Source: Dehalococcoidia bacterium (GTDB lineage: Bacteria > Chloroflexota > Dehalococcoidia > SZUA-161 > SpSt-899). From it: DNA of 64,000 nt. Below the pieces are notes generated by a model, which did not search any database, was not told the DNA's origin, and saw nothing but the letters and a program-made list of their open reading frames with translations. A program made the position numbers and the translations under genes. The stretch is taken from contig JAWOBB010000044.1 in the NCBI GenBank assembly GCA_046498265.1, positions 32,664 to 96,663 of the forward strand, in the 5' to 3' direction. Positions 5,168-63,149 of this stretch are shown here, in pieces (positions within the stretch are counted from its first letter, which is position 1; the number at the start of each line of letters is the position of its first letter).

Positions 5168-5196
5168 AGGGCGAGTCTTTAAACTCGCCCTTTTTT
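5168..5196. terminator. bidirectional rho-independent terminator between convergent lipoprotein and pgk
   Basis: GGGCGAGTCTTTAAACTCGCCC hairpin followed by TTTTTTG. Confidence 0.6.
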
Positions 5197-5198
5197 GA

Positions 5199-7173: not shown

Positions 7174-7272
7174 GTCATCCCTCTCTACATTCATTATAAG
7201 CTTGGTAAGAGCAAAGGTCTACCGCATTCAAAACAAAAGCTTTATACTACTTGTAACTAAGGGAAGTCTCCC

Positions 7273-7530: not shown

Positions 7531-7532
7531 GC

Positions 7533-8636: not shown

Positions 8637-8780
8637 TTTCTGATTTGCATTCTATCATATCTCATGATTTTGACGGGCCAGACACGGTCTCTGATTTCAT
8701 TCGCTATATTTCGCTAACTGTTAAGCAAAGCTCCTGATAAGATGATAAACTGAAAATAAAGGAACTCTGCTGCGCGCGCC

Positions 8781-12010: not shown

Positions 12011-12017
12011 TTCAGAG

Positions 12018-42048: not shown

Positions 42049-42268
42049 AATGTGCAGCCCCCCTTCATATTTCCAGTCGAAAGTATGGTAGCACTCAGCA
42101 ACTGTCTTGACAACGTTACTCAATGAATCTATCCTAGAAATGTTGCCTTTTGGGATAATCAATAATCTGCCAGCAATTCCCAATTAATTTAGCTTCAGCT
42201 AAAGAAGGCCCAACCGAAGTCAGGGACTTTCCCTGAACTGTTTCTACGGAGTTGTTTTGGAGGACCCT

Positions 42269-44308
42269 ATGCAGGATTTTAAAACTGAGGACATACGCAA
42301 TGTGATCTTGCTTTCCCACACAGGCGCAGGGAAAACTCAGCTTGCAGAAGCTATGTTGTATAACGCCAAAGTCATTACACGGCTTGGAAAAGTGGAGGAG
42401 GGAAATACTGTCACCGATTTTGAGCCCGAGGAAGTAAAACGGCAAAGCAGTACAAGCACAGCTCTGGCCCCTCTGGAGTGGAAGAACACCAAAATCAATA
42501 TTATAGATACACCCGGCTATTTTGATTTCGTGGGCGAGGTTAAATCGGCAATGAGAGCAGCTGACGGGGCCATTATCCCGATCTGTGCTGCTGCCGGAAT
42601 CGAAGTGGGTACGGAATTTTCCTGGCAATATGCTGAAGAAAACAACTTGCCGCGAATCATCTTTATTAACAAGATCGATCGCGAAAATGCTGATTTCGAT
42701 AAAGTAATGGGGGAAATCGAGGAAAAATTCGGGAACAAATGCGCCCCGATACAACTCCCGATCGGTTCGCAGGACGACTTCCGCGGAGTCATCGACCTGG
42801 TCACCGGCAAGCCCGTAGGTGATGCACCCGGCGATGCTATCTCGCAGGATGAAATCAAAAGCTACCGGGAAAAACTTATCGAAAGTGTGGCCGAAAGCGA
42901 TGACGACCTGGCCACAAAATACCTGGAGGGGGAAGAGATTGCCGAGGAAGAGATTAACAGGGCGCTTCTTGCCGGGACAAGCAACAACACGATTGTTCCT
43001 GTAATGGTAGGGAGTGCCCTCAAAAATAAAAACATCTCCGAATTGCTCGATGCTGTCTGCTATTACCTTCCTTCCCCAAAGGGTAAAGGTGAAGTTAAAG
43101 CGGGAGATAAATCCCTGCCCCCTGATGAAAACGCTCCAACTGCTGCGTTCGTGTTCAAGACTACTACCGATCCATATGTCGGGAAAATGACCTATCTGAG
43201 AGCGTTCAGTGGAAGCGTGGACAGCAACTCGACAATCTGGAACACAAACAAAGGTAAAGCAGAGAAGGTTGCCCAGCTTTTTACGGTGAGAGGGAAGACT
43301 CAGGAGCCAGCTTCCAGAATCATCGCCGGAGACATCGGCGTATTGACCAAGCTATCGGATACCAGCACAGGCGACACCCTTTCTTCCCAGGATAACCCCA
43401 TCCAGTTCGAGGGAATTGATTTTCCCGTTCCCACTCTGAGTTGTTCCGTAAATCCGAAGACCAAGGCAGATGTCGACAAAATGGGAACAGCCTTGAACAA
43501 GATTATTGAAGAAGACGCTTCACTTTTGTTTCACCGAGATCCCACCACCGCCGAGACCATACTTACCGGCTACGGGGAGGCACAACTGGACGTTACCGCT
43601 GAAAAGATGAAACGCAAATTCGGTCTTGAAACCGACCTTGCAACACCCAAAATTCCCTACAAAGAGACTATAACCGTCCCAACTAAGGCAGAATATAAAC
43701 ACAAAAAACAGACCGGGGGGCATGGGCAGTACGGACATGTACTCATAGACCTCCAGCCTCTTGAAAGGGGCCAGGGATACGAATTTGAACAAAGTATTGT
43801 CGGCGGGGCGATACCTAAAAATTATATACCGGCTGTTGAAAAGGGCATCGCAGAAGCGCTTAATGAAGGATTACTGGCCGGCTATCCTGTCACGGACCTG
43901 AAAGTTATCCTCTATGATGGAAGTTATCACGACGTAGACTCTTCGGATATGTCCTTCAAAATGGCCGGTTTACATGCGCTCAAAAAGGGGGTGAACGACG
44001 CTAACCCTGTCCTACTGGAACCCATCATGAATGTAACCATAACCATTCCCGACGCTTTTACCGGAGACGTCATGGGTGATTTAAACAGCAGGCGGGCCCG
44101 CATTTCAGGTATGAATCCTGCAAATGGCATCACCGTCATTACGGCTCAGGCTCCGCTTTCAGAAATGCAACGCTACAGCATCGATCTACGTTCAATGACC
44201 CAGGGGCGCGGCAGTTATGTAAACGAGTTCAGCCATTATGAAGAAGTCCCCCAGCACCTTGCCCAGAACATAATCGATAAAGCTGCCACGGAAAAGGGGA
44301 AAACTTAA
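42269..44308 (+). CDS. elongation factor G paralog (EF-G2-like translational GTPase)
   Basis: LLSHTGAGKTQL and DTPGYFDF G-motifs with full EF-G domain architecture. It is divergent from the fusA copy at 12018. Confidence 0.85.
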   Translation: MQDFKTEDIRNVILLSHTGAGKTQLAEAMLYNAKVITRLGKVEEGNTVTDFEPEEVKRQSSTSTALAPLEWKNTKINIIDTPGYFDFVGEVKSAMRAADGAIIPICAAAGIEVGTEFSWQYAEENNLPRIIFINKIDRENADFDKVMGEIEEKFGNKCAPIQLPIGSQDDFRGVIDLVTGKPVGDAPGDAISQDEIKSYREKLIESVAESDDDLATKYLEGEEIAEEEINRALLAGTSNNTIVPVMVGSALKNKNISELLDAVCYYLPSPKGKGEVKAGDKSLPPDENAPTAAFVFKTTTDPYVGKMTYLRAFSGSVDSNSTIWNTNKGKAEKVAQLFTVRGKTQEPASRIIAGDIGVLTKLSDTSTGDTLSSQDNPIQFEGIDFPVPTLSCSVNPKTKADVDKMGTALNKIIEEDASLLFHRDPTTAETILTGYGEAQLDVTAEKMKRKFGLETDLATPKIPYKETITVPTKAEYKHKKQTGGHGQYGHVLIDLQPLERGQGYEFEQSIVGGAIPKNYIPAVEKGIAEALNEGLLAGYPVTDLKVILYDGSYHDVDSSDMSFKMAGLHALKKGVNDANPVLLEPIMNVTITIPDAFTGDVMGDLNSRRARISGMNPANGITVITAQAPLSEMQRYSIDLRSMTQGRGSYVNEFSHYEEVPQHLAQNIIDKAATEKGKT

Positions 44309-45049: not shown

Positions 45050-45081
45050 CAGGCACAAAGTAACCTTTCAGCAATATGGCA

Positions 45082-45114
45082 AAGGGGGAAATCTTGTTCC
45101 AAGATTTCCCCCTT
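45082..45114. terminator. bidirectional terminator between convergent ctc and the biotin-carrier gene
   Basis: 14-bp stem AAGGGGGAAATCTT/AAGATTTCCCCCTT with loop GTTCC. Confidence 0.65.
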
Positions 45115-45151
45115 TGAATTCCATTTTGATTGAATGCTGTCAATATCGCAT

Positions 45152-45379
45152 TTAAAATTCAATTACCGCCAGGGTCTCTCCTGTCTTGACTACCTGATCC
45201 GGTGCGAGATTTATCTCCGTCACAGTTCCGGAAACCGGTGCCAGGATGGGATTTTCCATCTTCATCGATTCAATCTCGCAAATACTGTCCCCTTCGTTAA
45301 TCTGACTTCCTGCACTCACATTAACCCTGACTACTTTGCCCGGTATCGGAGCAGGTACAATCTCTGTTGCCATTTTCAA
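45152..45379 (-). CDS. biotin/lipoyl-attachment domain protein (small biotin carboxyl carrier-like, 75 aa)
   Basis: EIESMKMENPI biotinyl-lysine motif; a single hybrid-barrel domain. Confidence 0.75.
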   Translation of the reverse strand: MKMATEIVPAPIPGKVVRVNVSAGSQINEGDSICEIESMKMENPILAPVSGTVTEINLAPDQVVKTGETLAVIEF

Positions 45380-45762
45380 ACTCCTTTCTCTATTAATGGC
45401 CCCTCAACCTCTGCCTACACAAATTTCCATTATATACTATCGGCTATACTTATTTCCAGCATTGCTATTGAATTCCGAAACGATCCTCGAGATATGGCAG
45501 GTTTTCCTGCTGTCGCATGGCTCCATATTTCTTACCCATTATCTCGAATACAAATAACGGGAAAGATCATCGCGGGGAGAATGCTAATGCGAAAATACCA
45601 TTTCATGCCAGACAACATGTCATACTTTTGGCACTAGCCAGGGACAAGTTGCGCACTTCCCGGCTTTCTATGTATAATCATGTAATGGTTATGACATGTA
45701 AAATCAGCAATCTGAAAAGGGTTTGAGCATAATTGCAACAATCTCTACAAAAAGGGAAAAAC

Positions 45763-46306: not shown

Positions 46307-46657
46307 TCAAACCTGATGGGACTGATAGACAGTAATATCTTTGATGGGAAATCGATATGGATTGCCCTCCTGGTCAAAAACGGTAAGATACCGGTATTGT
46401 TCCCACACTTGCGGATCCAGCGAACAGTAAAAAGCAGCTCCGTCACCCGGTTGAATTGTCTGTTCACGTGGCGGGAAAAGATGACGGCATTCTAAAATAT
46501 CGTCCTCGTTTTCCAGTTTGAAATATCCGGGCACCGTAACCGGGCGATTTCCGTTGTTCAAAACATGCATCTCCAGGTTTTGATTATGCAAACTGGAACA
46601 TTTAAAAGACAGCACTTCCTCCATGTACGAGTTCATGATGATTTTCACGTTAAGCAT
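46307..46657 (-). CDS. hypothetical protein (116 aa)
   Basis: ORF only; no recognisable motif. Confidence 0.35.
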   Translation of the reverse strand: MLNVKIIMNSYMEEVLSFKCSSLHNQNLEMHVLNNGNRPVTVPGYFKLENEDDILECRHLFPPREQTIQPGDGAAFYCSLDPQVWEQYRYLTVFDQEGNPYRFPIKDITVYQSHQV

Positions 46658-46881: not shown

Positions 46882-48084
46882 TCAGTCTATTCCTACGATT
46901 CCCACCGACACAACACCTTTGGCAGGCTCACCGCCGAGGTTGTGGGTCAATCCCAGACGGGCATTTTTCACCTGTCTTTCCTCAGGAACTCTCCCCAGAA
47001 GCTGCTCATATACAGCGTACATCATCCTGAGTCCGGATGCGCCGATGGGATGGCCAAAGCATTTCAGCCCGCCATCCACCTGGCAGGGAATCGTTCCATT
47101 CAAATCATAGAACCCACTCATTATATCGTCATAAGCACCTCCGGGCGGCGATATCTTGAGGTCCTCCATAAGGATCAATTCCGTGATGGAAAAACAATCA
47201 TGGACTTCCATAAGATTTATCTCTTCTCGCGGATTCTTTATCGCGGCTTCCTCATAAGCCCTGGCAGCAGCCGTCTGGGTGGTGAAAAGCCCGGAACCAT
47301 CCCAGGTGCTGTATAGTGTTTCCTCGCCACTGGCTACGGAAATTTGCAGGGCCTTGATCTTGACTAAGTCCTGGTTGGGCTTTAATGATTTGGCAATCTC
47401 GGGAGTTGTGACGATGGCCGCAGCAGCACCGTCGCTGACGCCACAGCAATCGAACAAGCCGAGAGGATAAGAGATGATCGGCGCATTTTTCACCTGCTCT
47501 TCCGTTATGGGGAATCGCAGGTGCGCCCTGGGGTTCATGACCCCGTTGGCATGGCTTTTGACGGAAATATGGGCCATGGCCTCCTTGACCTTATCCATCT
47601 CAACCCCGTATCTTTTGCAATAAGCGGTGGCCAGTTGCGCAAAGGTGGACGGCCCCGACCCGGTGTAACCGCCGATAGTTGTATAGACCCCACCTCCACC
47701 GGTGGGTAAACCGGCAAAACCGGTGTCTTTCAATTTCTCCACCCCCACGGCCAGCGCGATATCGCAGGCGCCCGCGGCTACAGCGTAAGAAGCAAACCTG
47801 AGCGCTTCCGTGGCGGTGGCACAGAAGTTCTCCGTCCTGGTAACCGGGATATGTTGAAGTTTCAGGACTTCGCTGTGGCCAACGGCGGCCTTGCCGATAT
47901 TCACCTCATCATAGCAGGTACCCACAAATGCTGAACCTATATCTTTCTTCTCGATGCCGGCATCTTCCAGGCACTCTACAAAGGCCTCGACCATCAGGTC
48001 CTCGGCGCCCTTGCCCCAGAGCTCACCGAATTGCGTACAGCCCATGCCTATTATGACTACTTTGTCCCTGATTCCGTCAGCCAT
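46882..48084 (-). CDS. thiolase-like protein (SCP-x/archaeal-type thiolase family)
   Basis: Start at MADGIRDKVVIIGMGCTQFGE (the ORF extends to 48135). The start codon lies 1 nt from the upstream gene stop. Confidence 0.8.
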   Translation of the reverse strand: MADGIRDKVVIIGMGCTQFGELWGKGAEDLMVEAFVECLEDAGIEKKDIGSAFVGTCYDEVNIGKAAVGHSEVLKLQHIPVTRTENFCATATEALRFASYAVAAGACDIALAVGVEKLKDTGFAGLPTGGGGVYTTIGGYTGSGPSTFAQLATAYCKRYGVEMDKVKEAMAHISVKSHANGVMNPRAHLRFPITEEQVKNAPIISYPLGLFDCCGVSDGAAAAIVTTPEIAKSLKPNQDLVKIKALQISVASGEETLYSTWDGSGLFTTQTAAARAYEEAAIKNPREEINLMEVHDCFSITELILMEDLKISPPGGAYDDIMSGFYDLNGTIPCQVDGGLKCFGHPIGASGLRMMYAVYEQLLGRVPEERQVKNARLGLTHNLGGEPAKGVVSVGIVGID

Positions 48085-48085
48085 C

Positions 48086-49543
48086 TTATTTTCCCTCCCA
48101 TGCAGGCGTTGCTTTCCAGAAGTACCCGATGACATTTCTTGCCCTGTCGTTATATTTTACCCGGAAAGTCATCGTCATAGCCTTCCCGACAGAAAGGTCC
48201 TCCAAGGCACAATCCGTGATTTCAAACATATTCCGTCCCCCACCTTCAAACTCGATCCTCCCGGTCAACATGGGAGGGTCAAGCGCAGCGGTAAGGTTAT
48301 CGCCAGTGAAGCTGATAATATGACCGGTCTTGTCAGCGAAGGGATACGGCTCCATCTGGTCCACAGCCCCGCATTCAGGATTGGCGCAGATTCTCTGGGG
48401 AGGCCACTGCGGAGCTCCACAAACCAGACACCGGCTACCCCACAGCCCGAGAATCTCCTTCCTCCTTCGCCAGAGAGCTGAAAGTGCGGTATAGTCGACT
48501 ATCTCGTTGCGCAGGCCGACATCGGCAGGCAGCAGGTTACGCCAGACCGCATACTTGGTATAGTTGCCCAGGTCCGCTTTTTTAGCCAGGTAACCCGAAA
48601 TACCCATACACTCTCTCTTCGTGTTGATGTTCTCCGTCACTTCGAAATAAAGGGCATCGGACCCGCTGCCATAACTCGCCAAGAGTATCTTGTCTCCCGG
48701 CCTGGCGCTTTCCAGCGCCTGAGCCAGCATAACCAGAGGTAAAGAGGTTCCCGAATCCCCTATTTCAGCCTGCAAATTGCTCTGCTCAACTTCAGGCTGG
48801 ATGCCCAGCTTTTTGTTTATGTCCCTCCGGGCTCCCCTGTTGTTACAGGGATAAATCACTCTGGCAAAATCAGAAATCTTCAACTGGCACTTATCCAGCA
48901 ATCCGTTAATGGCCTCAGGAATAAACTGGGAATATCCCTCATCTCGAATCCAGCGTTCTTCCCACTGGCGATCCAGAGTGGCATCATTGGCCCGCATATG
49001 GTCGGCAAAATCATAGGTAACCGAATAGGAATCCTTGAATTCGGCAATGACGTTATCATCCCCGACCAGAAAGGCGGCAGCAGCATCGCCGAAAATCATT
49101 TCCTGATTGGTGGCAGCCATTGCCAGCCGGCAGTCAGCCGAGGTAACCAGGATATTATTCACCTTTCTGGATTCCACACTTTCCAGGGCGGAAAGCAAAG
49201 CAGTGGTCCCCGCTTTAAGCCCTCCCCCGAAATCGGCGGCCCTCACCTGGTCCGGCACATTCAGCGCCGGGATTATGAGCCCGGCATTTAATCGCTCTTT
49301 GTGAGGCATGGTGGTCGAAGCGAAATACACCCCTTCCACCTTCGACTTATCCTCTCCTCTCAGCGCATCAATGCCGGCTGCCGCACCCATGGTAATGGAG
49401 TCTTCATCATAATTGGCCACCGCCTTTTCCCCCTGGGCATGAGCCATAATGGCCATATTCATCCAGGCCATAGCCTGAACGATAGCGCCCCGGTTCAGCC
49501 GGTATCGCGGAACATATCCCCCATATGAACATATTCCAGCCAT
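48086..49543 (-). CDS. HMG-CoA-synthase-like condensing enzyme fused to a C-terminal DUF35 (Zn-ribbon + OB-fold) domain
   Basis: ATG 49543 is preceded by AAGGAGG. The N-terminus MAGICSYGGYVPRYR is like archaeal HMGCS. The C-terminal 130 aa carry CLVCG...CANPECG zinc-ribbon Cys pairs typical of DUF35. The ORF track calls the start at TTG 49573. Confidence 0.75.
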   Translation of the reverse strand: MAGICSYGGYVPRYRLNRGAIVQAMAWMNMAIMAHAQGEKAVANYDEDSITMGAAAGIDALRGEDKSKVEGVYFASTTMPHKERLNAGLIIPALNVPDQVRAADFGGGLKAGTTALLSALESVESRKVNNILVTSADCRLAMAATNQEMIFGDAAAAFLVGDDNVIAEFKDSYSVTYDFADHMRANDATLDRQWEERWIRDEGYSQFIPEAINGLLDKCQLKISDFARVIYPCNNRGARRDINKKLGIQPEVEQSNLQAEIGDSGTSLPLVMLAQALESARPGDKILLASYGSGSDALYFEVTENINTKRECMGISGYLAKKADLGNYTKYAVWRNLLPADVGLRNEIVDYTALSALWRRRKEILGLWGSRCLVCGAPQWPPQRICANPECGAVDQMEPYPFADKTGHIISFTGDNLTAALDPPMLTGRIEFEGGGRNMFEITDCALEDLSVGKAMTMTFRVKYNDRARNVIGYFWKATPAWEGK

Positions 49544-49781
49544 AAATCCTCCTTTCAAATTAATGTCTGCCAATCGGCCGGTTTCATTCTCACAAGCTAA
49601 GATTTCATCTAATATATCCGCTTTTGCACAGCAGTGTTTTTGCCTGCCGCAGTGATTATATCACAATCCGACCTCAATGGACATATGCGCCATGACTCTG
49701 CGCATTTCAAGTTCAAATGGTTCATTTTTTCGGCTGCAACGTCTCACTTTTTAACCTTATCACGGGGACATTGTATTATTA

Positions 49782-49810
49782 TTGACATTCACACTCCGGC
49801 AAGGTAAAAT
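49782..49810 (+). promoter_or_regulatory. near-consensus sigma70 promoter (TTGACA-17-TAAAAT) driving the acyl-CoA dehydrogenase operon
   Basis: Read directly in the 414-bp divergent intergenic region. Confidence 0.5.
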
Positions 49811-49987
49811 TGCAACTGTTTGTGGCGAAGGTGGTTTTTATCCGTTTGCATCCCCGAATCGCCTATCATAATATAGGATTTGCCTGCACTAACAAGAAGG
49901 GATATCTTAAAAAAGCAGGCTCAATCAGGTGAATGGATTCCTTAACAGATTGGTCGAGCGATTACAAATTACCCTCGGAGGAAAAAT

Positions 49988-51121
49988 ATGGATCTTGAGC
50001 TAACCGAAGAACAGCAACTCCTGAAAAACTCGGCACGCGATTTTTTCGAAAGGGAACTCCCTAAGGAAAAAGTCAAGGAAATCGAATTCGACCCTCTCGG
50101 GTACAGTCCTGAGCTATGGAAAAAGATGGCCGAGCTGGGCTGGTGCGGTCTAACCATTCCGGAAAAATATGGCGGGGCCGAATTCGGCCTGATGGAACTG
50201 GTGATGCTCCTGGACGAAATGGGCAAAGCGGCATTGCCAAGCCCGTATTTTTCGAGCACCGTCCTTTGCGCCCCACTCATCAACATGGCAGGCAGCGAAG
50301 AACAGAAATCGGAATTACTGCCCAGAATTGCCAGCGGAGAATCGATTTTCGCCTTCGCCCTCACTGAAACCACGGCCACCTATGAGCCCGATGGAATTGA
50401 AACCAGAGCCACCGTGGAGAATGATTCATATATTCTGAACGGCACCAAGTTATTTATTCACGACGCCCATTGCGCCGATTACATCATTTGCGCAGCCAGA
50501 ACCAGAGTCTGGACCACCCCGGAAGAAGGAATCAGCATTTTCCTGGTTGACCCGAAGAGCCCGGGAATTACCATCACCCCGCTTCAAACCATCGCCAACG
50601 ACCACCAGAACGAAATCACATTCGATAATGTTTCCGTTCCCGCCGCTAACCTGATCGGTGAGCTTGATCAGGGCTGGCCGACCATCAAGAAAGTCCTCGA
50701 CCAGGCTATTGTAGCAAAGTGCGCCGAGATGATAGGCGGCTGCGACTGGGCAGTTGAGGCATCAGTCGAATATGCCAAAGAGAGGGTTCAATACGGACAC
50801 CCAATTGGCGCTTACGGAATTATTCAGCATTACCTGGCTGATATGTGGATGGAATGCAGCATGGGCCGAAGGCTGACCTATTATGCAGCATGGGCACTAC
50901 AGGAAGGAGAAAACCCGGACCTGATATTACCTGCCACCAAGAGATGGGTAAACGAGTCCTTCAAGCATTGTACCCGAATGGGAGTGCAAATACACGGCGG
51001 CATAGCCACTACCATGGATCATGACATGGGGATTTACTACAGGAGAGCCAGGCAGGCAGCCCTCCTTTTTGGAGACACCGAAATCAGCCTCCAGAAAGTG
51101 GCCGGGCAACTGGGGCTCTAA
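49988..51121 (+). CDS. acyl-CoA dehydrogenase family protein (subunit 1 of probable two-gene pair)
   Basis: ACAD three-domain fold, 377 aa. The C-terminal motif LFGDTEIS has Gly where MCAD has catalytic Glu (YEG). Confidence 0.8.
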   Translation: MDLELTEEQQLLKNSARDFFERELPKEKVKEIEFDPLGYSPELWKKMAELGWCGLTIPEKYGGAEFGLMELVMLLDEMGKAALPSPYFSSTVLCAPLINMAGSEEQKSELLPRIASGESIFAFALTETTATYEPDGIETRATVENDSYILNGTKLFIHDAHCADYIICAARTRVWTTPEEGISIFLVDPKSPGITITPLQTIANDHQNEITFDNVSVPAANLIGELDQGWPTIKKVLDQAIVAKCAEMIGGCDWAVEASVEYAKERVQYGHPIGAYGIIQHYLADMWMECSMGRRLTYYAAWALQEGENPDLILPATKRWVNESFKHCTRMGVQIHGGIATTMDHDMGIYYRRARQAALLFGDTEISLQKVAGQLGL

Positions 51122-51154
51122 TATACTGGCATTACAGCTGATGGAGGCACTACA

Positions 51155-52345
51155 ATGGATTTCAGATTAACGCCGGAACAGGAGAAACTGAAAGCGGAAT
51201 TCGATTCCCACTTCGCTGAGGAAGCAAAGCGGGCTCCCGAGGGTTGGTTCGGGGGGTTCGAGACCCGTTTCGAAACGGACGAGAACTGGGCTTATTACCG
51301 TTCGGTTATAGATAAAGTTGCCGAGAAAGGCTGGCTTTCCCTTCCCTGGCCCAAGAAATACGGCGGCCAGGAACTGGGGTACCTCGAACAGGCCCTGTTC
51401 GCCCAATCTGCGGAGTATCACCGGGTCCCCGCAATCGACGTTCACCTCTCCATAGTCTCAGCGGGGATGCTGGAATATGCCAGCGAGGAGATGAAGCAGG
51501 AATGGCTGCCCCGCATGGCCAGGGGGGAAATCGACTTCGCCCAGTGCTGGAGCGAGCCCGACGCAGGCTCCGACCTTGCCGCTCTAACCACCCGGGCAGT
51601 CGAAGACGGCGACGAATACGTAATCAATGGCCAGAAGGTCTGGACCACCGGGGCTCACCGGGCAAATCACCTGTTCATACTGGCACGTACGGACACCACT
51701 GTTAAGCCGAACAAAGGCCTTACCTATTTCCTCTGCGAGATAGACAAGCCCGGCATAACCATCAGGCCTGTCTATTACATGAACGGCGGACACGTTTGCA
51801 ACGAGACCTTTTTCGACGATCTCAGAGTACCCAAGAAAAACATCGTCGGCGAGGTAAACCAGGGCTGGAAAGTCACCATGGCCGGGGCCAACTTCGAGCG
51901 ATCCGGGGCAGGAGGTGTCGCCGCCATGCAAAGGGATATGGAGGACCTGGTGGATTTCTGTAAACATACCTATCACCGAGGTCAGGCTTTAAGCAAAGAC
52001 CCTATTGTTCAGCGCAAACTCGCCGACCTGGCGGTGAAAATCGAGACCATGCGGCAATGGGCCTATTTCTGTGCCTGGCAGCAGACAAGAAATCCGATGT
52101 CCTACATGGAACCCTCGGCAAGCAAGTACTATATGACCGAGCTTATGGTGGAGCTGGCCAATACGGGGCTCGAGATTATGGGACTGTACGGACCCCTCAA
52201 GCAGGGCTCCAAGTGGGCTCCCCTTAAAGGCAAGTTTGAAGAGCAATCCCAGATCACCCTGGGCTTCACTATTGCCGGCGGCACATCGGAAACGCAAAAG
52301 AACATTATCGCCTGGTATGGACTTTGGCTGCCCAGAATGAAATAA
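51155..52345 (+). CDS. acyl-CoA dehydrogenase family protein (subunit 2; IVD/LCAD-like)
   Basis: 396 aa. The C-terminus IAGGTSETQKNII resembles IVD, and FER in the helix-G region sits at the IVD-type catalytic Glu position. Confidence 0.8.
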   Translation: MDFRLTPEQEKLKAEFDSHFAEEAKRAPEGWFGGFETRFETDENWAYYRSVIDKVAEKGWLSLPWPKKYGGQELGYLEQALFAQSAEYHRVPAIDVHLSIVSAGMLEYASEEMKQEWLPRMARGEIDFAQCWSEPDAGSDLAALTTRAVEDGDEYVINGQKVWTTGAHRANHLFILARTDTTVKPNKGLTYFLCEIDKPGITIRPVYYMNGGHVCNETFFDDLRVPKKNIVGEVNQGWKVTMAGANFERSGAGGVAAMQRDMEDLVDFCKHTYHRGQALSKDPIVQRKLADLAVKIETMRQWAYFCAWQQTRNPMSYMEPSASKYYMTELMVELANTGLEIMGLYGPLKQGSKWAPLKGKFEEQSQITLGFTIAGGTSETQKNIIAWYGLWLPRMK

Positions 52346-53479: not shown

Positions 53480-53590
53480 CTATATTTGTCGGTAAACACC
53501 CGAACAAATACGAGGCGGATGTTGCTATTCGCCTCGTATTCTTGTATATTAAGGTTTACCATAAATCAGGAACACATTCCCCTAATCGTA

Positions 53591-54814
53591 ATGTCAGGTA
53601 CAAAAAAGACGAAAGCCCGGCTCCTCGAAGAACTGGCGGCGCTTCGCGAGCAGCTTACTCAAATCGAAGCCGCGGCCAGCCAGCGCAAGCAAGCCGAAAA
53701 GGCCCTGCGAAGAAAAGGGGAACAGTTACAGGCCCTGATCGAGAACTCGCTCGAGGATGTGGCCGTCCTTAACAGCGACGGAACCGTGCGCTATCAGAGC
53801 CCCTCCATGGGCCGGGTGCTGGGATATGAACCGGCCGACCAGACAGGATCGAACGCTTTCGATTACATCCACCCCGAAGACAGGCAAACTGCGGAACAGG
53901 CACTTAAACAGGTAAAGGAGAATCCCGGTTCTCCCCTGCATGTAGAGCTTCGTGCCCCTCACAGCGACGGCACATGGCACACCGTGGAAGTGGTGCTCCG
54001 CAACCTCCTTGACGACCCGAGCACAAGCGGCATCCTGGCCAATTTCAGGGATATCACGGAGCGCAAGCTTGCGGAAGAGGCCAGGATAAGACATGCAGCG
54101 GCCCTGGCCCGGGCCCAGGAGCTGCAGCACTCCCGGCAGCGAATCGTTACGGTGCAGGAATCGCTCAGGAGGGATATCGCCCAGCAGCTTCACGGCACGG
54201 TGCAGAACAGGCTCATCATCATTCTGCACAAGCTGGCGGACCTGGAAAAGAAGACCTCGGCAACGGAAATTGCCGAAGAACTCGACGATACACGCCGAAA
54301 ACTGGCAGAGGTAATGGAAGACCAGGTACGACCTATCAGTCATCGTCTATACCCTTCAATCCTGCGCCGGGGACTGGCCGCCTCACTTCAGTCCCTGGGA
54401 GATCAGTTCGAGACAGCACTGGAGATCGAAACCGACCTCGATGAGGAAATCCAGAAAGAGGAAAGGATCGAGCCCAAACTCATCCCGGAACAGGTTCGCC
54501 TGTCAGCCTATCGAATTGCTGAAGAGGCCCTCACCAACGCCGTCAAATATGCCAGGGGAAGCAAGGTCAACATCACAATGAAAAAACTGCCGGAAGGCTG
54601 GTTCCGGCTTTCGATAAAGGACAGCGGCCCGGGATTCGACACCGCCGGGACTGACAGCGGGCTGGGGATGCTCATGATGCAGGATTACGCCGAAATGGCA
54701 GGGGGCAATTGTACCATACGGAGCATGCGCGGGGAGGGAACCGAAGTGACAGCTACTCTTCCCCTCGGAGAGCCAGACGGAGAGCCTCCAGAGAAAACGA
54801 CACCTTGGGAATGA
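53591..54814 (+). CDS. PAS-domain sensor histidine kinase (HisKA_3/NarX-type)
   Basis: Coiled-coil, a PAS domain, an H-box (ISHRLYPSIL) and a HATPase_c domain. The ORF track starts at 53486. Confidence 0.8.
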   Translation: MSGTKKTKARLLEELAALREQLTQIEAAASQRKQAEKALRRKGEQLQALIENSLEDVAVLNSDGTVRYQSPSMGRVLGYEPADQTGSNAFDYIHPEDRQTAEQALKQVKENPGSPLHVELRAPHSDGTWHTVEVVLRNLLDDPSTSGILANFRDITERKLAEEARIRHAAALARAQELQHSRQRIVTVQESLRRDIAQQLHGTVQNRLIIILHKLADLEKKTSATEIAEELDDTRRKLAEVMEDQVRPISHRLYPSILRRGLAASLQSLGDQFETALEIETDLDEEIQKEERIEPKLIPEQVRLSAYRIAEEALTNAVKYARGSKVNITMKKLPEGWFRLSIKDSGPGFDTAGTDSGLGMLMMQDYAEMAGGNCTIRSMRGEGTEVTATLPLGEPDGEPPEKTTPWE

Positions 54815-55136
54815 AAGTCAGCGCCCCCGCCTCTTTCGCCAGCCTCTCATACACCCGTTCAGCATAGGCACTGACCAGTACCGCTCTGGTCCCGGGGAAG
54901 CGTTCCTGAATACAGCGGGTCACTTCCAGGCCGTCGGGAGGCGGCATATACATATCCGCAATGACCAGATCGGGCTTTAGTGAAGGGATTATGTCAATGG
55001 CCTCGCTCCCGTTAGCAGCCTCCCCTACCACCCGGAAATCCACGCTGTTTCCAAACAGGGTTCGGAGCCAATGGCGGAATTCGGGCTCATCGTCCACGAC
55101 CACTACGCTGTAGGTGTAACTCTCCTCCATATACAT
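54753..55136 (-). CDS. single-domain response regulator (REC only)
   Basis: VVVVDDEPEF...ADMYMPPPDG receiver motifs. The 3' end overlaps the kinase 3' end by 62 nt on the opposite strand. Confidence 0.7.
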   Translation of the reverse strand: MYMEESYTYSVVVVDDEPEFRHWLRTLFGNSVDFRVVGEAANGSEAIDIIPSLKPDLVIADMYMPPPDGLEVTRCIQERFPGTRAVLVSAYAERVYERLAKEAGALTFIPKVSFSLEALRLALRGEE

Positions 55137-55162
55137 TCAGGTTAAACGTTTCGGGAGAGGGG

Positions 55163-55184
55163 CACCATAGTGCTAGCCTGATGT
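55163..55184. repeat. left arm of an imperfect ~22-bp inverted repeat (core GTGCTAGCCTGAT) flanking the LuxR-type regulator gene; partner at 55962-55984
   Basis: 13/13 core identity and about 19/23 extended identity. Both copies are intergenic. Confidence 0.4.
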
Positions 55185-55192
55185 TTGCTTTG

Positions 55193-55861
55193 TCATCGGG
55201 GGCGGCTGACGGAATCCTCTATATACATCAGGGTGGCCTTTACCCGGGCATGCATACCCGGCTCATTGGTAAGCTGAAGCTCCTGATAGATGGTATTGAT
55301 ATAGGTCTCAACCGATTTTTCGGAAAGTGACAAAAGCCTTGCTATGGAAGCGTTATTGTAACCTTGAGCCATGAGCTCCAGCACATCCTGGTGGCGACGT
55401 GTCAAGCGCGCTATCGGGGATCCTTCTCTGGGCTGCAGACTGGAAACCACAGCCGGATCAAGCACCACCATTCCCTCAATACTCCCCTGTATAGCCCTGG
55501 TCACTGTAGCTATATCCGGCACCGTCTGCTTGAGAAGATACGCCCAGCCCGGTACCTCATCAACGGGCAGGCTGGTAATATATCGACGCTCGCTGTGTGC
55601 GGAAAGGATAACTATGCCGGTCTCCGGCCGCCTGCTTTTAATCTTGAGGGCCGCCTCTATTCCGTCCATCTGGCCGGCAAGCTCGATATCCATAAGGATG
55701 GCATCCGGCGCTTCCTTCTCAGCAAGCCGAACCGCAGTTTCCCCATCAACGGCTGTGCCCACCACTTCCAGATCGGGCTGTGCCGAAAGGGTATGCCGCA
55801 ACAGCTCCCTTAAGAGATCTTCGTCATCGACTATGACTATTCTCTTTTTAGTTTTAGGCAT
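55193..55861 (-). CDS. NarL/LuxR-family response regulator (REC + HTH)
   Basis: IVIVDDEDLLRELL receiver plus a C-terminal LuxR HTH (LTRRHQDVLELMAQGYNNASIA). Confidence 0.85.
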   Translation of the reverse strand: MPKTKKRIVIVDDEDLLRELLRHTLSAQPDLEVVGTAVDGETAVRLAEKEAPDAILMDIELAGQMDGIEAALKIKSRRPETGIVILSAHSERRYITSLPVDEVPGWAYLLKQTVPDIATVTRAIQGSIEGMVVLDPAVVSSLQPREGSPIARLTRRHQDVLELMAQGYNNASIARLLSLSEKSVETYINTIYQELQLTNEPGMHARVKATLMYIEDSVSRPR

Positions 55862-56129: not shown

Positions 56130-57881
56130 ATGCCCAACGAAGAAAGGTATGACTTTGTCATCGTGGGTGGTGGTCCCAACGGAACAGCGCTGGCTTCATA
56201 TTTAGGCAAATGCGGGGCCAGTGTTTGTGTTCTGGAAGAGAGAACCGAGGCCGGGGGCTCGTGCGAGAACACTGAGCCGTTCCCGGGCGTGCGCATTACC
56301 CCGCACGCCATGTACATGTATGGAGGTCCGGCACCCGGTTTCGATCAGCTGGAGCTCGGCAAATACGGTTTCCGCATGGACTGGAGCCCCATGGCCGAAA
56401 ACCTGATGGCCCAAAAGGAATCGGGGGTCAAGGTATCCGATGGAGTAGCATCCATCACCGATAAGGACATGATGGGCTGGGGCAAGCTGGCCGGGGTAAC
56501 CACCGAGCAGCCTTACATCAGGGAACTGCTCCGGTCGATTTTCTGGACCCCGCCGCACCCTCCTGAAATCGAGGTCACACCGGAAAACGTTCCCTACATG
56601 CAGGTATACAAGCAGCACGATCCTTCCATATGGACCGAGGAGCTGCTGGACATGACCATGTTCGATCTCATGGACGAATACTGTGAGACCGAGCCGTTCA
56701 AGGTGATGCAGGCAGCGGTTGCCTGGTATTCCGGCGCGGCTGGACACTGGGAAGGGGTGGCTATCCCCGCTATCGGGTGCGATATAACCCTGACCCTTTA
56801 CAGCGGCCTCAGCGTACCGCGCGGCGGCATGCATGACTACTTCCATGCCATCATCCGTTCGGCCATCGCCAACGGCGCTGTCATCCGAACCTGCTGTCCG
56901 GTGGAAGAGATCATTATCGAGAACGGCCGGGCGGCCGGCGTGCGCCTGCGGGAGACCGCCACCTGCGATGAAAAGAAGATATGGGCCAACAAAGCCGTCA
57001 TCAGCGGGGTTGATGTCCGGCAGACCTTCATCGATTTAATCGGCAAAAAGCACCTGGGAGACAGCTTCCTCAGGAAGGTTAAGGATATCAGCCTCAAGGG
57101 AGGCAGTATCTGGGTATCGCACCTTATCACCAAACAACCACTGCGCCCCAGAGAGAAATTCAAGACTCTGAACCAATCGGAGCCAGGGCAGGTCGGCGGA
57201 CCTTTCCCCTGCGATTCGCGGGATATTTACTACGAGCACGTCGCGGACGTGGACGGGCGGAAGGGAGCCCCGACTGTTCCACCGGAAAGGTTGATGTGGC
57301 TGGCTACACAAAGCGACAGGTTCTCCGGAACCGATCCGCAGTGTTCCGTCCCGGGATGGTATCTCGAATCACCGTATTATGTACTGGTCCCGCCGCCGGA
57401 GTATGAGCAGGAAGACCCCTGGAGCACCAGAAAAGAGGACTTCCAGCAGGGCCGTCCCGGCACCGTGGATGAAAAGAAAGAGGAAATCAATGCCTATATG
57501 CGCAAGGCTTTCAGCATAGTGCTGGAAAACCTTGACGACGACCTTATCATGCACCTGGCCAATACGCCTTACGAATCGGAATTCCGCAACACCGGTCTTA
57601 TCGGCGGTACCTGGTGCGGAACGCGGCACTGCGACGACCAGTGGGGTGAGACCCGCCCCATACCGGAACTGTCTCGATACCGGACTCCCATAGACGGTCT
57701 TTATGTATGCAACCAGACCTGCGGCCATCCGGGCGGGCTGGCCCTGATGGCCATTCCCTATAACCTGATGCATATCCTGATTGAGGACGGCATGGTAGAG
57801 CCCGGCAGCTGGTGGTATGCATCGCCATGGTACATACCCCAGGACGGCAAGATACCGGCCAACAAGAACGGAGTCAAATAA
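56130..57881 (+). CDS. FAD-dependent oxidoreductase, phytoene-desaturase/CrtI (COG1233) family, paralog 1
   Basis: N-terminal dinucleotide fold DFVIVGGGPNGTALASYL...LEERTEAGG; 583 aa. Confidence 0.75.
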   Translation: MPNEERYDFVIVGGGPNGTALASYLGKCGASVCVLEERTEAGGSCENTEPFPGVRITPHAMYMYGGPAPGFDQLELGKYGFRMDWSPMAENLMAQKESGVKVSDGVASITDKDMMGWGKLAGVTTEQPYIRELLRSIFWTPPHPPEIEVTPENVPYMQVYKQHDPSIWTEELLDMTMFDLMDEYCETEPFKVMQAAVAWYSGAAGHWEGVAIPAIGCDITLTLYSGLSVPRGGMHDYFHAIIRSAIANGAVIRTCCPVEEIIIENGRAAGVRLRETATCDEKKIWANKAVISGVDVRQTFIDLIGKKHLGDSFLRKVKDISLKGGSIWVSHLITKQPLRPREKFKTLNQSEPGQVGGPFPCDSRDIYYEHVADVDGRKGAPTVPPERLMWLATQSDRFSGTDPQCSVPGWYLESPYYVLVPPPEYEQEDPWSTRKEDFQQGRPGTVDEKKEEINAYMRKAFSIVLENLDDDLIMHLANTPYESEFRNTGLIGGTWCGTRHCDDQWGETRPIPELSRYRTPIDGLYVCNQTCGHPGGLALMAIPYNLMHILIEDGMVEPGSWWYASPWYIPQDGKIPANKNGVK

Positions 57882-57892
57882 GGAGGAATGCA

Positions 57893-59581
57893 ATGCCTAC
57901 AGTAAAGAAACCAAACCTGATATTCGGTATGCCGTTTGAGGAGTTTCCCGATGAAACCGAATGGGATGCCATAGTAGTAGGCGCCGGGCCTAATGGACTG
58001 ATCGCCGCAGCCTACCTGGCCAAGGCCGGCTTGAAAGTGGCACTGGTCGACCGCCGCTACGAGATCGGGGGCGGGCTGGCTACGGACGAGGTCCTCTTCC
58101 CCGGGTATTATTCCAACAATCACGCCATTTACCATATGATGGTCGATTATATGCCTGTTTTGCAGGATTTCGATTTCGGCAAATACGGCTTTCAGTGGAT
58201 CAAGCCCAATGCCCAGACAGGCGCCGTTTTCGACAGCGGGGAGTCACTGGTCCTGGCCCATATGATTGAGGACACCAAGGATTCCATCACCAAGTTCTCC
58301 TTTAAGGATGCCGTTACTTACGGGCGCCTCATGAGGCAATGGAAAAAGATCGTGGCCGATATTCTCGGCCCGGCCACTTATCTGCCTCCCATGCTCCCAA
58401 TCGAAATCACTATGACCATGCAGAAAACCCCTGTCGGCCAGCAGATGCTGGAGCTGGCTGAGGAGAGCGCTCTCAACATCATCAACAGCAATTTCGAGAA
58501 CGACAGGCTCCGGGCGGCAATGCTGTACAACTGCTGCATCTGGGGGCTCGACCCCAGGGAGACCGGCGTGGGAATGTTCGTGGCACTTTACAGCGATCGG
58601 ATGATCAATAAATGCTACTGCCAGGGCGGTTCCCATAAACTGGCCGGCGCACTGGCACGAGAAATCCTGAGTAACGGGGGGATCATCATCGATGCCTGCG
58701 AGGCAACCAAAATCATGATGGAGGGAGGCAAGGTAGCCGGCATCGAAACCAGAGAGGGACGCGTGCTGAAGAGCAAGGTGATCATGTCCACGCTGGACCC
58801 CCATACCACCTTCCTCGACCTGCTGGGGAAGGAGAATATGAGCCCCGATCTGGCCGAATCCATTGAGGGCTGGAAATATGACAAATGGAGCTATTTCACC
58901 GTACATGTGGCCACCAAAGAGCCCCCGCGTTACAATTGCGACGACCCCTGGGTCAACGAATCCTTCATGAATCTGGTGGGAGTCGAAGGTGAAGACCAGC
59001 TGCTGGCCCACTGGGACAACGTGGTCAGCGGGAAAATCGATTTGAACAATATCGCCGGTCACGCCACCTGCGAGAGCCAGCTGGATCCTCACCTGGTCCA
59101 CTCGCCATATGGGGGACACGTTTCCTTCTTCCAGATGCACGCCCCCTACGATATCGAAGGCGGATGGGACAAGATGGGGCCGGAGCTGCTGGAAGCGGTA
59201 CTGGCCAGATGGCAGAAGGTTGCTCCCAATATGACCAAGAACAACATCCTCAAGGTAACTTACGAAACGCCGGTAGGAATCGAGCTTCGCTTCCCCAACA
59301 TGCGCTACGGGGCCATTAAGCACGGCGACTACAAGCCCATCCAGCTCGGGTGTTTCCGGCCTAACCAGGAATGCTCGAGCTCGGCAACTCCCATACCGGG
59401 GCTTTATACCTGCGGCGCCTCCAATTATCCGGGAGGTGCGGTACTGGGCGGCCCCGGCTACATCGGCGCCAACAAGGTGGCCGAGGACCTGGGCGTTACC
59501 AAGTGGTGGAAGCCGACCCCTCAAATGGAAAAATACACCCAGGTCTACCTGGAATCACCCATGGGCGGTTTGCCGACCTAA
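57893..59581 (+). CDS. FAD-dependent oxidoreductase, CrtI/COG1233 family, paralog 2
   Basis: ATG after AAGGAGG. AIVVGAGPNGLIAAAYLAKAGLKVALVDRRYEIGGG. It lies 11 nt after paralog 1. Confidence 0.8.
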   Translation: MPTVKKPNLIFGMPFEEFPDETEWDAIVVGAGPNGLIAAAYLAKAGLKVALVDRRYEIGGGLATDEVLFPGYYSNNHAIYHMMVDYMPVLQDFDFGKYGFQWIKPNAQTGAVFDSGESLVLAHMIEDTKDSITKFSFKDAVTYGRLMRQWKKIVADILGPATYLPPMLPIEITMTMQKTPVGQQMLELAEESALNIINSNFENDRLRAAMLYNCCIWGLDPRETGVGMFVALYSDRMINKCYCQGGSHKLAGALAREILSNGGIIIDACEATKIMMEGGKVAGIETREGRVLKSKVIMSTLDPHTTFLDLLGKENMSPDLAESIEGWKYDKWSYFTVHVATKEPPRYNCDDPWVNESFMNLVGVEGEDQLLAHWDNVVSGKIDLNNIAGHATCESQLDPHLVHSPYGGHVSFFQMHAPYDIEGGWDKMGPELLEAVLARWQKVAPNMTKNNILKVTYETPVGIELRFPNMRYGAIKHGDYKPIQLGCFRPNQECSSSATPIPGLYTCGASNYPGGAVLGGPGYIGANKVAEDLGVTKWWKPTPQMEKYTQVYLESPMGGLPT

Positions 59582-59849: not shown

Positions 59850-60647
59850 ATGGCCATAAATAAGATTGTAGATAGTTTTGACGAAGCCGTAGCGGATGTC
59901 TTTGACGGCGCTACCGTCATGGTCGGGGGTTTCGGCACAGTAGTCAGCATTCCAAGTTGCCTGTTGGAAGCCATCTATCGAAAAGGTGTCAAAAACCTCA
60001 CCACGGTATCCAATGCCAGCGGATTCGGGTCGGATGTATGGAAACTGCAGGGCGCGCCGTTCCCCGAGGATATGGACATCCTCATTCGAAACGAGCGAGT
60101 GAAAAAAGCAATCGTCTCAGCTCCCATCAGTGCACTCTATGTAAACAACTTCGAACAGCTCTGGCGAGACGGGAAAATCGAGCGGGAGATGGTGCCCCAG
60201 GGCACCCTGGCAGAGCGTATCCGCGCCGCCAAAGCAGGGTTAGGGGGTGTTTATATTCCCACCGGCGTCGGGACGGTAGTGGAAGAGGGAAAGGAGAAAA
60301 AGGTCATCAACGGACAGGAATACCTCCTGGAACTCCCTATTCATGCCGATTTCGCCATCATCCACGCCCACAAGGCCGACCGCTTTGGCAACCTGGTATA
60401 CCGGGGAACCTCCCGCACCTTCAACCCGGTGATGGCCGGGGCGGCTAAAGTGACCATCGCCGAAGTCGATGAGATCGTCGAGGCCGGCGAGCTTGACCCC
60501 GAGGTCATCGTCACGCCGGGCGTATATGTCCAGCGAGTGGTCAAGCGTCCCGAGCCCGAATCAGCCGAGGGCGAGATAACGGATGAGCAGGCAAAGGAAT
60601 CGCTCTCCAAATTCCAGGAAGATGTGAAACGGGCCACTGACAAGTAG
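59850..60647 (+). CDS. family I CoA-transferase subunit A (3-oxoacid/AtoD-like) with a C-terminal extension
   Basis: VMVGGFGTVV and glutamate-bearing active-site region; 265 aa. Confidence 0.8.
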   Translation: MAINKIVDSFDEAVADVFDGATVMVGGFGTVVSIPSCLLEAIYRKGVKNLTTVSNASGFGSDVWKLQGAPFPEDMDILIRNERVKKAIVSAPISALYVNNFEQLWRDGKIEREMVPQGTLAERIRAAKAGLGGVYIPTGVGTVVEEGKEKKVINGQEYLLELPIHADFAIIHAHKADRFGNLVYRGTSRTFNPVMAGAAKVTIAEVDEIVEAGELDPEVIVTPGVYVQRVVKRPEPESAEGEITDEQAKESLSKFQEDVKRATDK

Positions 60648-60654
60648 GGGGTGC

Positions 60655-61347
60655 ATGATGGCAATCAGAGAAGAGTTAATACAGAAAGACAAGCTCGACC
60701 GACAGGTAATGGCCCTGCGGGTGGCCAGGGAATTCCAGGATGGCGATATGGTTAATCTCGGGCAGGGCATACCCACCCTTTGTTCCAATTTCGTTCCAGC
60801 AGAGAGGGAGGTCATCTTCCAGAGCGAGAACGGCGTGATGGGATATGGGGAGATAACCCTCCCCGGAGAAGGGGACCTTGACATAGTGAACGCCAGCGGA
60901 CAAACCGTTCATCCCGCACCGGGGATGTGCTTCTTCGATAACTGCGAATCGTTCGTGATGATACGGGGCGGACACCTCGATATCACCGTCATGGGCGCTT
61001 ATCAGGTTTCCGAAAGAGGCGACCTGTGCAACTATATGGTGCCGGCCCGGCAGGTCGGGACCATCGGCGGGGCAATGGACCTTGCCTTCGGGGCCAAGAG
61101 GGTTATCATCGTAATGAACCACATCACCAAAGAAGGCGGCTATCGAATTAGAAAAGAGCCCGATTACGAAATAACCGCTCCGCGTTGCGTAAGCCTTCTG
61201 GTAACCGATATCGCGGTCATTGAGGTCACCGACAAAGGCATGGTGCTCAAAGAATACGCTCCCGGCTGGACCCCTGAGGAAGTACAGGAACTGACCGAGC
61301 CGACGCTCATCATCGCTCCCGATTGTGGTGAAATGACGCTGGCATAA
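60655..61347 (+). CDS. family I CoA-transferase subunit B (AtoA-like)
   Basis: 230 aa subunit B, directly downstream of subunit A. Confidence 0.8.
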   Translation: MMAIREELIQKDKLDRQVMALRVAREFQDGDMVNLGQGIPTLCSNFVPAEREVIFQSENGVMGYGEITLPGEGDLDIVNASGQTVHPAPGMCFFDNCESFVMIRGGHLDITVMGAYQVSERGDLCNYMVPARQVGTIGGAMDLAFGAKRVIIVMNHITKEGGYRIRKEPDYEITAPRCVSLLVTDIAVIEVTDKGMVLKEYAPGWTPEEVQELTEPTLIIAPDCGEMTLA

Positions 61348-63128: not shown

Positions 63129-63149
63129 ATAGATGCGACCAAAGGAGGT

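Follow-up and report, generated by a model that had tools for sequence, protein, structure and literature searches.

A thiolase gene coupled to a fused HMG-CoA-synthase-like/DUF35 gene lacking the synthase active site in a Dehalococcoidia bacterium

The gene pair

We describe two adjacent genes in a 64,000-nucleotide stretch of DNA from a Dehalococcoidia bacterium (assembly GCA_046498265.1, contig JAWOBB010000044.1, positions 32,664 to 96,663; hereafter the window, from the first letter of which positions are counted), which encode a protein that joins a pseudo-hydroxymethylglutaryl-coenzyme A synthase (pseudo-HMG-CoA synthase, or HMGS-like) domain to a DUF35 module, and a thiolase of the SCP2/archaeal type. 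The fusion gene occupies 48086..49543 on the minus strand (485 amino acids plus stop) and is assigned from domain matches, phmmer searches of the PDB, and an AlphaFold2 model searched with Foldseek; the thiolase gene follows at 46882..48084 on the same strand (400 amino acids plus stop) and is assigned from matches to NF004810, Pfam and the PDB. An earlier reading of the nucleotide sequence alone (the sequence-only reading) had interpreted this pair as a bacterial single-gene version of the archaeal thiolase/HMG-CoA synthase/DUF35 complex, and the coordinates, one-nucleotide spacing and peptide motifs that it gave are all correct, on the minus strand.

The mechanically called open reading frame (ORF) of the fusion gene spans 48086..49573, with a TTG start and 495 amino acids. 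An ATG at 49543, preceded by the Shine-Dalgarno sequence AAAGGAGGA, gives a protein of 485 amino acids that begins MAGICSYGGYVPRYR, a length common to nearly all of the best 120 fusion homologs. The junction between the two genes (48085..48102, minus strand), as read from the sequence, consists of a GGGAGGG motif, a TAA stop, a spacer base and the ATG of the thiolase: the stop of the fusion gene lies at 48088-48086, the single base at 48085 and the thiolase start at 48084 (MADGIRDK...), so that the thiolase Shine-Dalgarno sequence sits within the 3' end of the fusion gene. An alternative in-frame thiolase ATG at 48135 would yield a protein of 417 amino acids, and is disfavoured because homologous thiolases are 399-402 amino acids long.

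The fusion protein comprises a thiolase-fold domain of the HMGS/PhlA-like kind (residues 1 to ~340) and a DUF35 zinc ribbon plus OB-fold (residues ~357-481). Both NCBIfam models of archaeal HMG-CoA synthase are covered over their full length by residues 1-337, yet their scores remain under the cut-offs (212 bits, E 9e-63, cut-off 244 for NF003274; 155 bits, cut-off 353 for TIGR00748), and Pfam matches ACP_syn_III_C at residues 216-294. Towards the C-terminus, the Pfam family zf-ChsH2 is matched at residues 367-393 (23.7 bits, exceeding its gathering score of 23.2) and OB_ChsH2_C at residues 404-461 (24.7 bits, E 2e-5, under the gathering score of 27.1). Additionally, the archaeal DUF35 chain 6esq_E (residues 5-128 of 130) aligns end to end with the last 143 amino acids of the fusion (E 3.7e-8), with a phmmer score of 33-37 bits against the DUF35 part. 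The DUF35 module that had been read from the C-terminal motifs is consequently real. Its zinc-ribbon cysteines (C372, C375, C386 and C391) are intact in 191 of 202 close homologs, a set that comprises the window protein, 120 database proteins and 81 ORFs from related loci.

Among solved structures, the N-terminal domain is most similar to PhlA, with phmmer scores of 124 bits (9skh_A) and 113 bits (5m3k_A) versus 84 bits for archaeal HMG-CoA synthase. The AlphaFold2 model of the fusion (pLDDT 69, pTM 0.74) gives a corresponding order in Foldseek, with PhlA first (E 5e-24), followed by the archaeal chains 6et9_I and 6esq_I (E 8e-22) and then MucA. The proposed homology to the archaeal complex is upheld by these Foldseek matches, together with the phmmer matches to 6esq_E for DUF35 and 6esq_A for the thiolase.

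The partner is matched as a thiolase by NF004810 (NCBIfam; 610 bits, cut-off 403) and, over its 400 amino acids, by both Thiolase_N and Thiolase_C_1 of Pfam. Its catalytic motifs are intact, with a nucleophile at C88, H295-D-C-F and G344-H-P, and C88, HDCF and GHP are invariant in the partner thiolases of related loci (61/61). In the PDB it scores highest against 7yvy_A (191 bits) and 6esq_A, the acetoacetyl-CoA thiolase of the archaeal complex (186 bits), with much lower scores for BbsB (128 bits), Ltp2 (6ok1_A, 72 bits), PhlC (57-64 bits) and MucB (55 bits). The equivalog model for BbsB, NF053628, scores 139.5 bits against the window thiolase, for a cut-off of 750. The architecture put forward in the sequence-only reading, in which one protein joins an HMG-CoA-synthase-like domain to DUF35 and its gene is tightly coupled to that of an SCP2/archaeal-type thiolase, is thus confirmed by Pfam, NCBIfam and PDB matches.

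Loss of the synthase active site

Catalysis by archaeal HMG-CoA synthase depends on a tetrad, E82, C114, H238 and N270, replacement of which abolishes HMG-CoA formation (PMC12960953); we checked this numbering against chain 6esq_I, which it fits. A HMMER alignment to 6esq_I reveals that all four residues are substituted in the window fusion (E82>T77, C114>L109, H238>P232 and N270>D263), and across the 202 close homologs the same columns read T, then L, I or V, then P, then D or E. We also examined a wide set of 133 representatives of 50%-identity clusters, all with the full fused architecture and extending down to 31% identity. Cys, Glu and His are present at the tetrad positions in none of these representatives and in none of the close homologs (0/133 and 0/202, ~335 proteins together); the Asn of the tetrad survives in 38 of the 133. 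This shows that the whole fused family is without a synthase active site, and channelling of acetoacetyl-CoA into HMG-CoA or a feed into the mevalonate pathway is therefore excluded by the family-wide loss of the tetrad. Consequently, the suggestion that the pair is a functional single-gene counterpart of the archaeal machine fails on the replacement of its tetrad, as does the suggestion that it may feed a mevalonate route, given that Cys, Glu and His of the synthase site are absent throughout the family. Similar losses have been described in PhlA and MucA, both of which are non-catalytic subunits that lack the tetrad, including an N>D replacement (PMC12960953).

We considered a relocated nucleophile in the form of Cys233, which lies beside the former position of the His. 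Although 183 of 202 close homologs retain this residue, it recurs in just 12 of 135 rows of the wider-family alignment, and the idea was rejected for that reason.

Relatives and conservation of the pairing

A scan of species-representative genomes returned at least 599 matching stretches, of which 590 encode a relative of the fusion, such that at least 590 species genomes contain one. The family is thus large, and at 50% identity it includes 540 clusters with a score of E <= 1e-30. Among the matches listed, the hosts are mostly Thermodesulfobacteriota, Dehalococcoidia and other Chloroflexota, Actinomycetota and Syntrophomonadaceae, and the closest relatives share 76-90% identity with the window protein, some of them deriving from metagenome-assembled genomes (MAGs) of Chloroflexi or Dehalococcoidia. 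Many homologs bear the name ‘hydroxymethylglutaryl-CoA synthase’ in databases.

For genomic context we took 85 related loci (given L numbers below), 78 of which had room for a thiolase, the other 7 being cut by contig ends. Every assessable locus (78/78) has a thiolase gene downstream of the fusion gene, in the same orientation, and the arrangement of fusion and thiolase is consequently not due to chance. Several MAGs carry two separate loci, a pattern more easily reconciled with substrate-specific paralogs than with one housekeeping enzyme.

The fused type itself is already known, having been reported and assayed in a single published study, which surveyed 1,030 bacterial loci that carry HMGS, ACAT and DUF35 genes and characterised one of them, from Pseudomonas fluorescens (PMC12960953). 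In all, 1,001 of these loci, including that of P. fluorescens, lie outside biosynthetic gene clusters. Our search of the literature on anaerobes (sulfate reducers, Desulfatibacillum and Dehalococcoidia) found nothing specific on the fused family, and the paper on the thn operon of strain N47 makes no mention of such a protein, although N47_P16880 is a distant member of the family.

Genomic neighbourhood of the pair

In the window, the fusion gene is separated by a divergent intergenic region of 444 bp (49544..49987) from two adjacent acyl-CoA dehydrogenase genes on the plus strand (49988..52345; 377 and 396 amino acids, identified by Pfam). The Shine-Dalgarno sequence from which the fusion gene is read, AAGGAGG, falls within this intergenic region, as do promoter-like hexamers on both strands, which are consensus matches only. 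The acyl-CoA dehydrogenase pair weakly resembles PimD (small) and PimC (large), with 223 bits to pimD_small and 174 bits to pimC_large, far under the cut-offs, and its synteny with the fusion gene is kept in L001, L002 and L083 (close relatives and Desulfatibacillum). Beyond these genes lie a Zn-dependent (MDR-type) dehydrogenase, a PAS histidine kinase with two response regulators, flavoproteins and 3-oxoacid CoA-transferase A/B, and a regulator gene of the Lrp/AsnC type is also found among the neighbours of the pair. The earlier placement of the pair in a catabolic cluster is correct. Among the ~35 ORFs scanned in the 64-kb window, no mevalonate-pathway enzyme was found.

Neighbouring genes were counted in the 53 related loci of at least 12 kb, by tblastn with reference proteins and with identities confirmed by Pfam. 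A short-chain dehydrogenase/reductase (SDR) occurs in 25/53 loci, a hydratase of the MFE-2 (MaoC) type in 22/53, and both together in 20/53. Acyl-CoA dehydrogenases are similarly frequent (22/53), followed by acyl-CoA ligases and family-III CoA-transferases (12/53 each), SCP2 domains (10/53) and crotonases (7/53), and at least one class, when references for an OYE-type flavoprotein and for subunit A of 3-oxoacid CoA-transferase are included, is present in 39/53. Single-linkage clustering of neighbour ORFs was dropped, as it merged SDRs into the fusion cluster via 910-aa super-fusions. Desulfatibacillum alkenivorans AK-01 (locus at ~4.927 Mb of CP001322) and Desulfosarcina alkanivorans PL12 both have a close homolog, and gene order in AK-01 is acyl-CoA dehydrogenase, acyl-CoA dehydrogenase, SDR, fusion, thiolase, MaoC-N, MaoC. 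In relatives at 83% and 76% identity (L002 and L083) the arrangement is that of the window: Lrp, the 116-aa protein, thiolase and fusion, then, divergently, two acyl-CoA dehydrogenases and the genes beyond them.

Ten loci (L047, L060, L065, L068, L069, L074, L076, L079, L080 and L081) encode a super-fusion of ~910-923 amino acids with the architecture HMGS-like::DUF35::SDR::SCP2, after which the thiolase follows. A protein of ~709 amino acids with the architecture hydratase-2 (MaoC)::SDR::SCP2 precedes the super-fusion (in L047 the two genes lie at 3824-5953 and 6087-8858, respectively), and together these genes look like a bacterial equivalent of peroxisomal MFE-2 and SCPx. We found no description of such super-fusions in the literature searched.

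Another recurrent neighbour is a protein of ~110 amino acids with a cysteine-rich motif (SSCCGTGGC) and without a Pfam match. Seven loci, most of them from Actinomycetota and Syntrophaceae, encode it upstream of the fusion gene at a distance of one or two genes (L016, at 9233-9583, and in the same position in L019, L023, L027, L028, L030 and L036). In L066 the same protein is encoded on the opposite strand, several genes downstream of the pair.

Function of the pair and alternative explanations

The ACAT/HMGS-DUF35 complex of Pseudomonas fluorescens, in which HMGS and DUF35 share one polypeptide that lacks the tetrad and the ACAT retains Cys, HDxF and GHx, provides the closest assayed comparison (PMC12960953, Nat Commun 2026). 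From acetyl-CoA, this complex forms neither HMG-CoA nor acetoacetyl-CoA, and it cleaves acetoacetyl-CoA thiolytically, an activity that is nearly abolished by H294Y (PMC12960953). The window pair shares with it the fused HMGS-DUF35 protein beside a thiolase, the lost tetrad, the retained Cys/HDxF/GHx motifs (H294 there being H295 here) and the absence of neighbouring polyketide synthase (PKS) or non-ribosomal peptide synthetase (NRPS) genes. The two differ in host, Pseudomonas in one case and Dehalococcoidia in the other, and in setting, as the window pair and most of its relatives lie in acyl-CoA catabolic clusters.

We regard it as probable that the two genes encode a single 3-oxoacyl-CoA thiolase, composed of a catalytic 400-aa subunit and an obligatory, non-catalytic HMGS-like/DUF35 partner, which acts thiolytically in a beta-oxidation-like route. 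By comparison with the solved archaeal (6ESQ), PhlACB (5M3K) and MucABC (9VBO) complexes, DUF35 would clamp the thiolase to the HMGS-like domain, and the latter would stabilise the thiolase and help to form a shared CoA-binding chamber, with no part in catalysis. Cys88 would attack the 3-oxo group to give an acyl-enzyme, upon which CoA would release the shortened acyl-CoA and acetyl-CoA. Considering the P. fluorescens assay and the gene context, such thiolysis would form the last step of a beta-oxidation-like route, which here would use the divergent heteromeric acyl-CoA dehydrogenase and perhaps also the Zn-dependent dehydrogenase and the 3-oxoacid CoA-transferase. The degradative direction that had been considered in the sequence-only reading is thereby the best-supported one, in view of the intact thiolase motifs, the assay and the context. 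However, of the two forms of cleavage offered for it, retro-aldol or thiolytic, the thiolytic one is favoured by the assay and the context, and the retro-aldol one is disfavoured by the retention of C88 and HDCF instead of YDHF/YDCY.

Several points weigh against this explanation. Thiolases are reversible enzymes. The confidence of the AlphaFold2 model is only moderate (pLDDT 69), and relatedness to the P. fluorescens protein is deduced from architecture and motifs only. Furthermore, the proposed pathway is incomplete here, as neither an enoyl-CoA hydratase nor a clear 3-hydroxyacyl-CoA dehydrogenase is encoded in the window. Strong purifying selection also acts on the HMGS-like domain, in which many charged residues are invariant (including D104, R139, E148, D178, D181, R184, E195, R197 and R200) and residues 194-200 form an invariant WE.RW.R motif, and the domain may have some other catalytic or regulatory role, distinct from that of an HMG-CoA synthase. 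Finally, related thiolase/DUF35 pairs carry out condensation in archaeal fatty-acid synthesis (bioRxiv 10.1101/2024.07.05.601840).

This last point bears on the main rival, namely that the thiolase is a condensing enzyme of reverse beta-oxidation or of fatty-acid synthesis independent of acyl carrier protein, which we consider rather unlikely. The ketothiolase/DUF35 pairs of Sulfolobus fatty-acid synthesis work with an SDR reductase, a MaoC dehydratase and an MDR enoyl reductase (bioRxiv 10.1101/2024.07.05.601840), a set mirrored by the SDR and MaoC genes of related loci and by the MDR-type Zn dehydrogenase of the window, and many of the hosts are syntrophs, the pathways of which run near equilibrium. 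However, the frequent occurrence of acyl-CoA dehydrogenases, acyl-CoA ligases and CoA-transferases as neighbours indicates catabolism, the P. fluorescens complex made no acetoacetyl-CoA from acetyl-CoA (PMC12960953), and, without an active HMGS or a strongly exergonic next step, nothing would pull the unfavourable condensation forward. Cleavage could alternatively proceed by a retro-aldol mechanism, as in Ltp2-ChsH2(DUF35) or Sal-Shy, with the side chain of a 3-hydroxyacyl-CoA removed without an oxidation step; thiolase-fold aldolases bound to DUF35 are known from steroid side-chain catabolism (PMC12329534), and the lack of a usual 3-hydroxyacyl-CoA dehydrogenase or hydratase next to the pair in the window would suit such a reaction. 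Yet we find this improbable, since C88 and H295-D-C-F are invariant, whereas in the Ltp2 and Sal aldolases HDCF is replaced by YDHF or YDCY (PMC12329534), similarity to Ltp2 (6ok1_A) amounts to just 72 bits, and many related loci have an SDR next to the pair or joined to the fusion protein itself, which fits a 3-oxo substrate.

A further comparison is with the multicomponent C-acyltransferases PhlACB (Pseudomonas protegens, 5M3K/5MG5), CsATase (9SKH) and MucABC (9VBO/9VBT), of which PhlACB and MucABC likewise combine a silent HMGS-like subunit, a DUF35 clamp and catalysis in a thiolase-fold partner. That the pair might be a CoA-independent acylase of this Friedel-Crafts type, serving a phenolic or tetramic-acid acceptor in secondary metabolism, is suggested by PhlA being the nearest solved relative of the N-terminal domain in both sequence and fold, and by a dead tetrad that includes the N>D replacement of PhlA and MucA. 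We nevertheless think it very improbable, as the window thiolase keeps the HDCF motif that PhlC and MucB have lost (PhlC and MucB lack the HDxF histidine, and their acceptors are aromatic or tetramic-acid compounds), scores 186 bits to the archaeal thiolase against 57-64 for PhlC and 55 for MucB, has no PKS or NRPS genes and no secondary-metabolite cluster near it among the scanned window ORFs, and is paired with a fused DUF35, which is a separate protein in PhlACB and MucABC. Least credible of all is a functional thiolase/HMG-CoA synthase machine that channels acetoacetyl-CoA into HMG-CoA, supplying mevalonate synthesis or some other route that depends on HMG-CoA. The homology to all three archaeal components, the archaeal-HMGCS-like N-terminus and the database names would speak for it, and the window pair does share with the archaeal complex three homologous modules, the thiolase motifs Cys/HDxF/GHx and the HMGS fold. 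However, four catalytic residues are replaced, with Cys, Glu and His gone family-wide; archaeal tetrad mutants make no HMG-CoA, and nor does the P. fluorescens complex (PMC12960953); and the synthase models score under their cut-offs, with no mevalonate gene among the window ORFs scanned. The window thus differs from the archaeal system in having the modules on two polypeptides, through fusion, in a destroyed E-C-H-N site and in the want of a mevalonate context, and the chemistry expected here is thiolysis, not condensation of acetyl-CoA to HMG-CoA.

The thiolytic explanation finds a further parallel in BbsAB, the benzoylsuccinyl-CoA thiolase of Geobacter metallireducens (7PXP), which likewise associates a DUF35 zinc-finger subunit with an SCP2-type thiolase bearing HDxF and catalyses the final reaction in a specialised anaerobic beta-oxidation. 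In their gene order, several of the related loci are bbsABCD-like, with a DUF35 protein, a thiolase, an SDR and then another enzyme. Unlike the window fusion, BbsA is a stand-alone protein without an HMGS-like domain, and the window thiolase is far under the BbsB cut-off.

A more specific version of the thiolytic explanation, which we put forward tentatively as a possibility, is that the pair represents, instead of an evolutionary leftover, the dedicated thiolase of a widespread (R)-specific, MFE-2/SCPx-like beta-oxidation of anaerobes, directed at bulky, branched or isoprenoid-like acyl-CoAs, with Thermodesulfobacteriota, Dehalococcoidia, Actinomycetota and Syntrophomonadaceae as hosts. The dead synthase domain, to which some lineages have also joined an SDR dehydrogenase and a lipid-binding SCP2 domain, would then have been kept as part of the chamber for CoA and substrate, and in the window the pair would work with the heteromeric acyl-CoA dehydrogenase and CrtI-like flavoproteins on a lipid-like acid. 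Eukaryotic peroxisomal MFE-2 and SCPx offer the analogy, in that L047 and nine other loci combine hydratase-2 (MaoC), SDR and SCP2 domains with an SCP2-type thiolase; in contrast, these hydratase, SDR and SCP2 domains are not in the window, and the bacterial system adds the pseudo-HMGS::DUF35 scaffold. By analogy, this likeness may serve as a lead to the substrate class, hinting at bulky or branched acyl-CoAs.

The principal gain for this window is a corrected annotation. Automatic annotation as ‘hydroxymethylglutaryl-CoA synthase’ can falsely suggest the presence of a mevalonate pathway in Chloroflexota and sulfate reducers, and the fusion protein would be a further example of a pseudoenzyme retained as a structural part of a metabolic complex. 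The P. fluorescens complex was seen by its authors as an evolutionary intermediate without a pathway (PMC12960953), a view against which the beta-oxidation-like clusters around the pair argue. To the published account we add the pseudoenzyme state across the family, the strict pairing with a thiolase and a beta-oxidation-like setting that includes the SDR-SCP2 super-fusions, and placement in beta-oxidation would give the fused type a concrete and testable physiological role.

Other features of the window

Downstream of the thiolase, a gene at 46307..46657 (minus strand) encodes a 116-aa protein without a Pfam or NCBIfam match. Homologs of this protein follow the thiolase in L002, L026 and L083, and it may form part of the system of the pair. 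On the other side of the pair, between the dehydrogenase and flavoprotein genes, the PAS histidine kinase (plus strand) and the two response regulators (minus strand, one of them LuxR-type) occupy 53486-55861, and these two-component genes may regulate the cluster. Four paralogous flavoproteins of the CrtI/amine-oxidase-like type that bind flavin adenine dinucleotide (FAD) are encoded on the plus strand at 56130-57881, 57812-59581, 61392-63128 and 63138-64000 (the last cut by the window end), interleaved with the 3-oxoacid CoA-transferase A/B pair at 59850-61347 (plus strand). Their best family match is CrtO-like, far under the cut-off, and the same kinds of genes lie beside the pair in L002 and L083. 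We attempted to derive a substrate from the neighbouring genes. The PimC/PimD, CrtO and Had-like matches are all far under the family cut-offs, and the substrate is consequently left unassigned.

The G+C content rises from 0.46-0.50 at 36-50 kb, where housekeeping genes are located, to 0.54-0.56 at 50-64 kb, where the catabolic cluster lies, and this step may indicate that the cluster was acquired from elsewhere. A gap of 680 bp separates the L25 gene from the Lrp/AsnC regulator (45050-45732); its sole ORF is an implausible one of 167 amino acids, and it contains no match to an Rfam family and no transfer RNA (tRNA). The window also carries two EF-G-like genes on the plus strand, one at 11916-14099, near a ribosomal protein cluster, and the other at 42257-44308, beside the gene for ribosomal protein L25.

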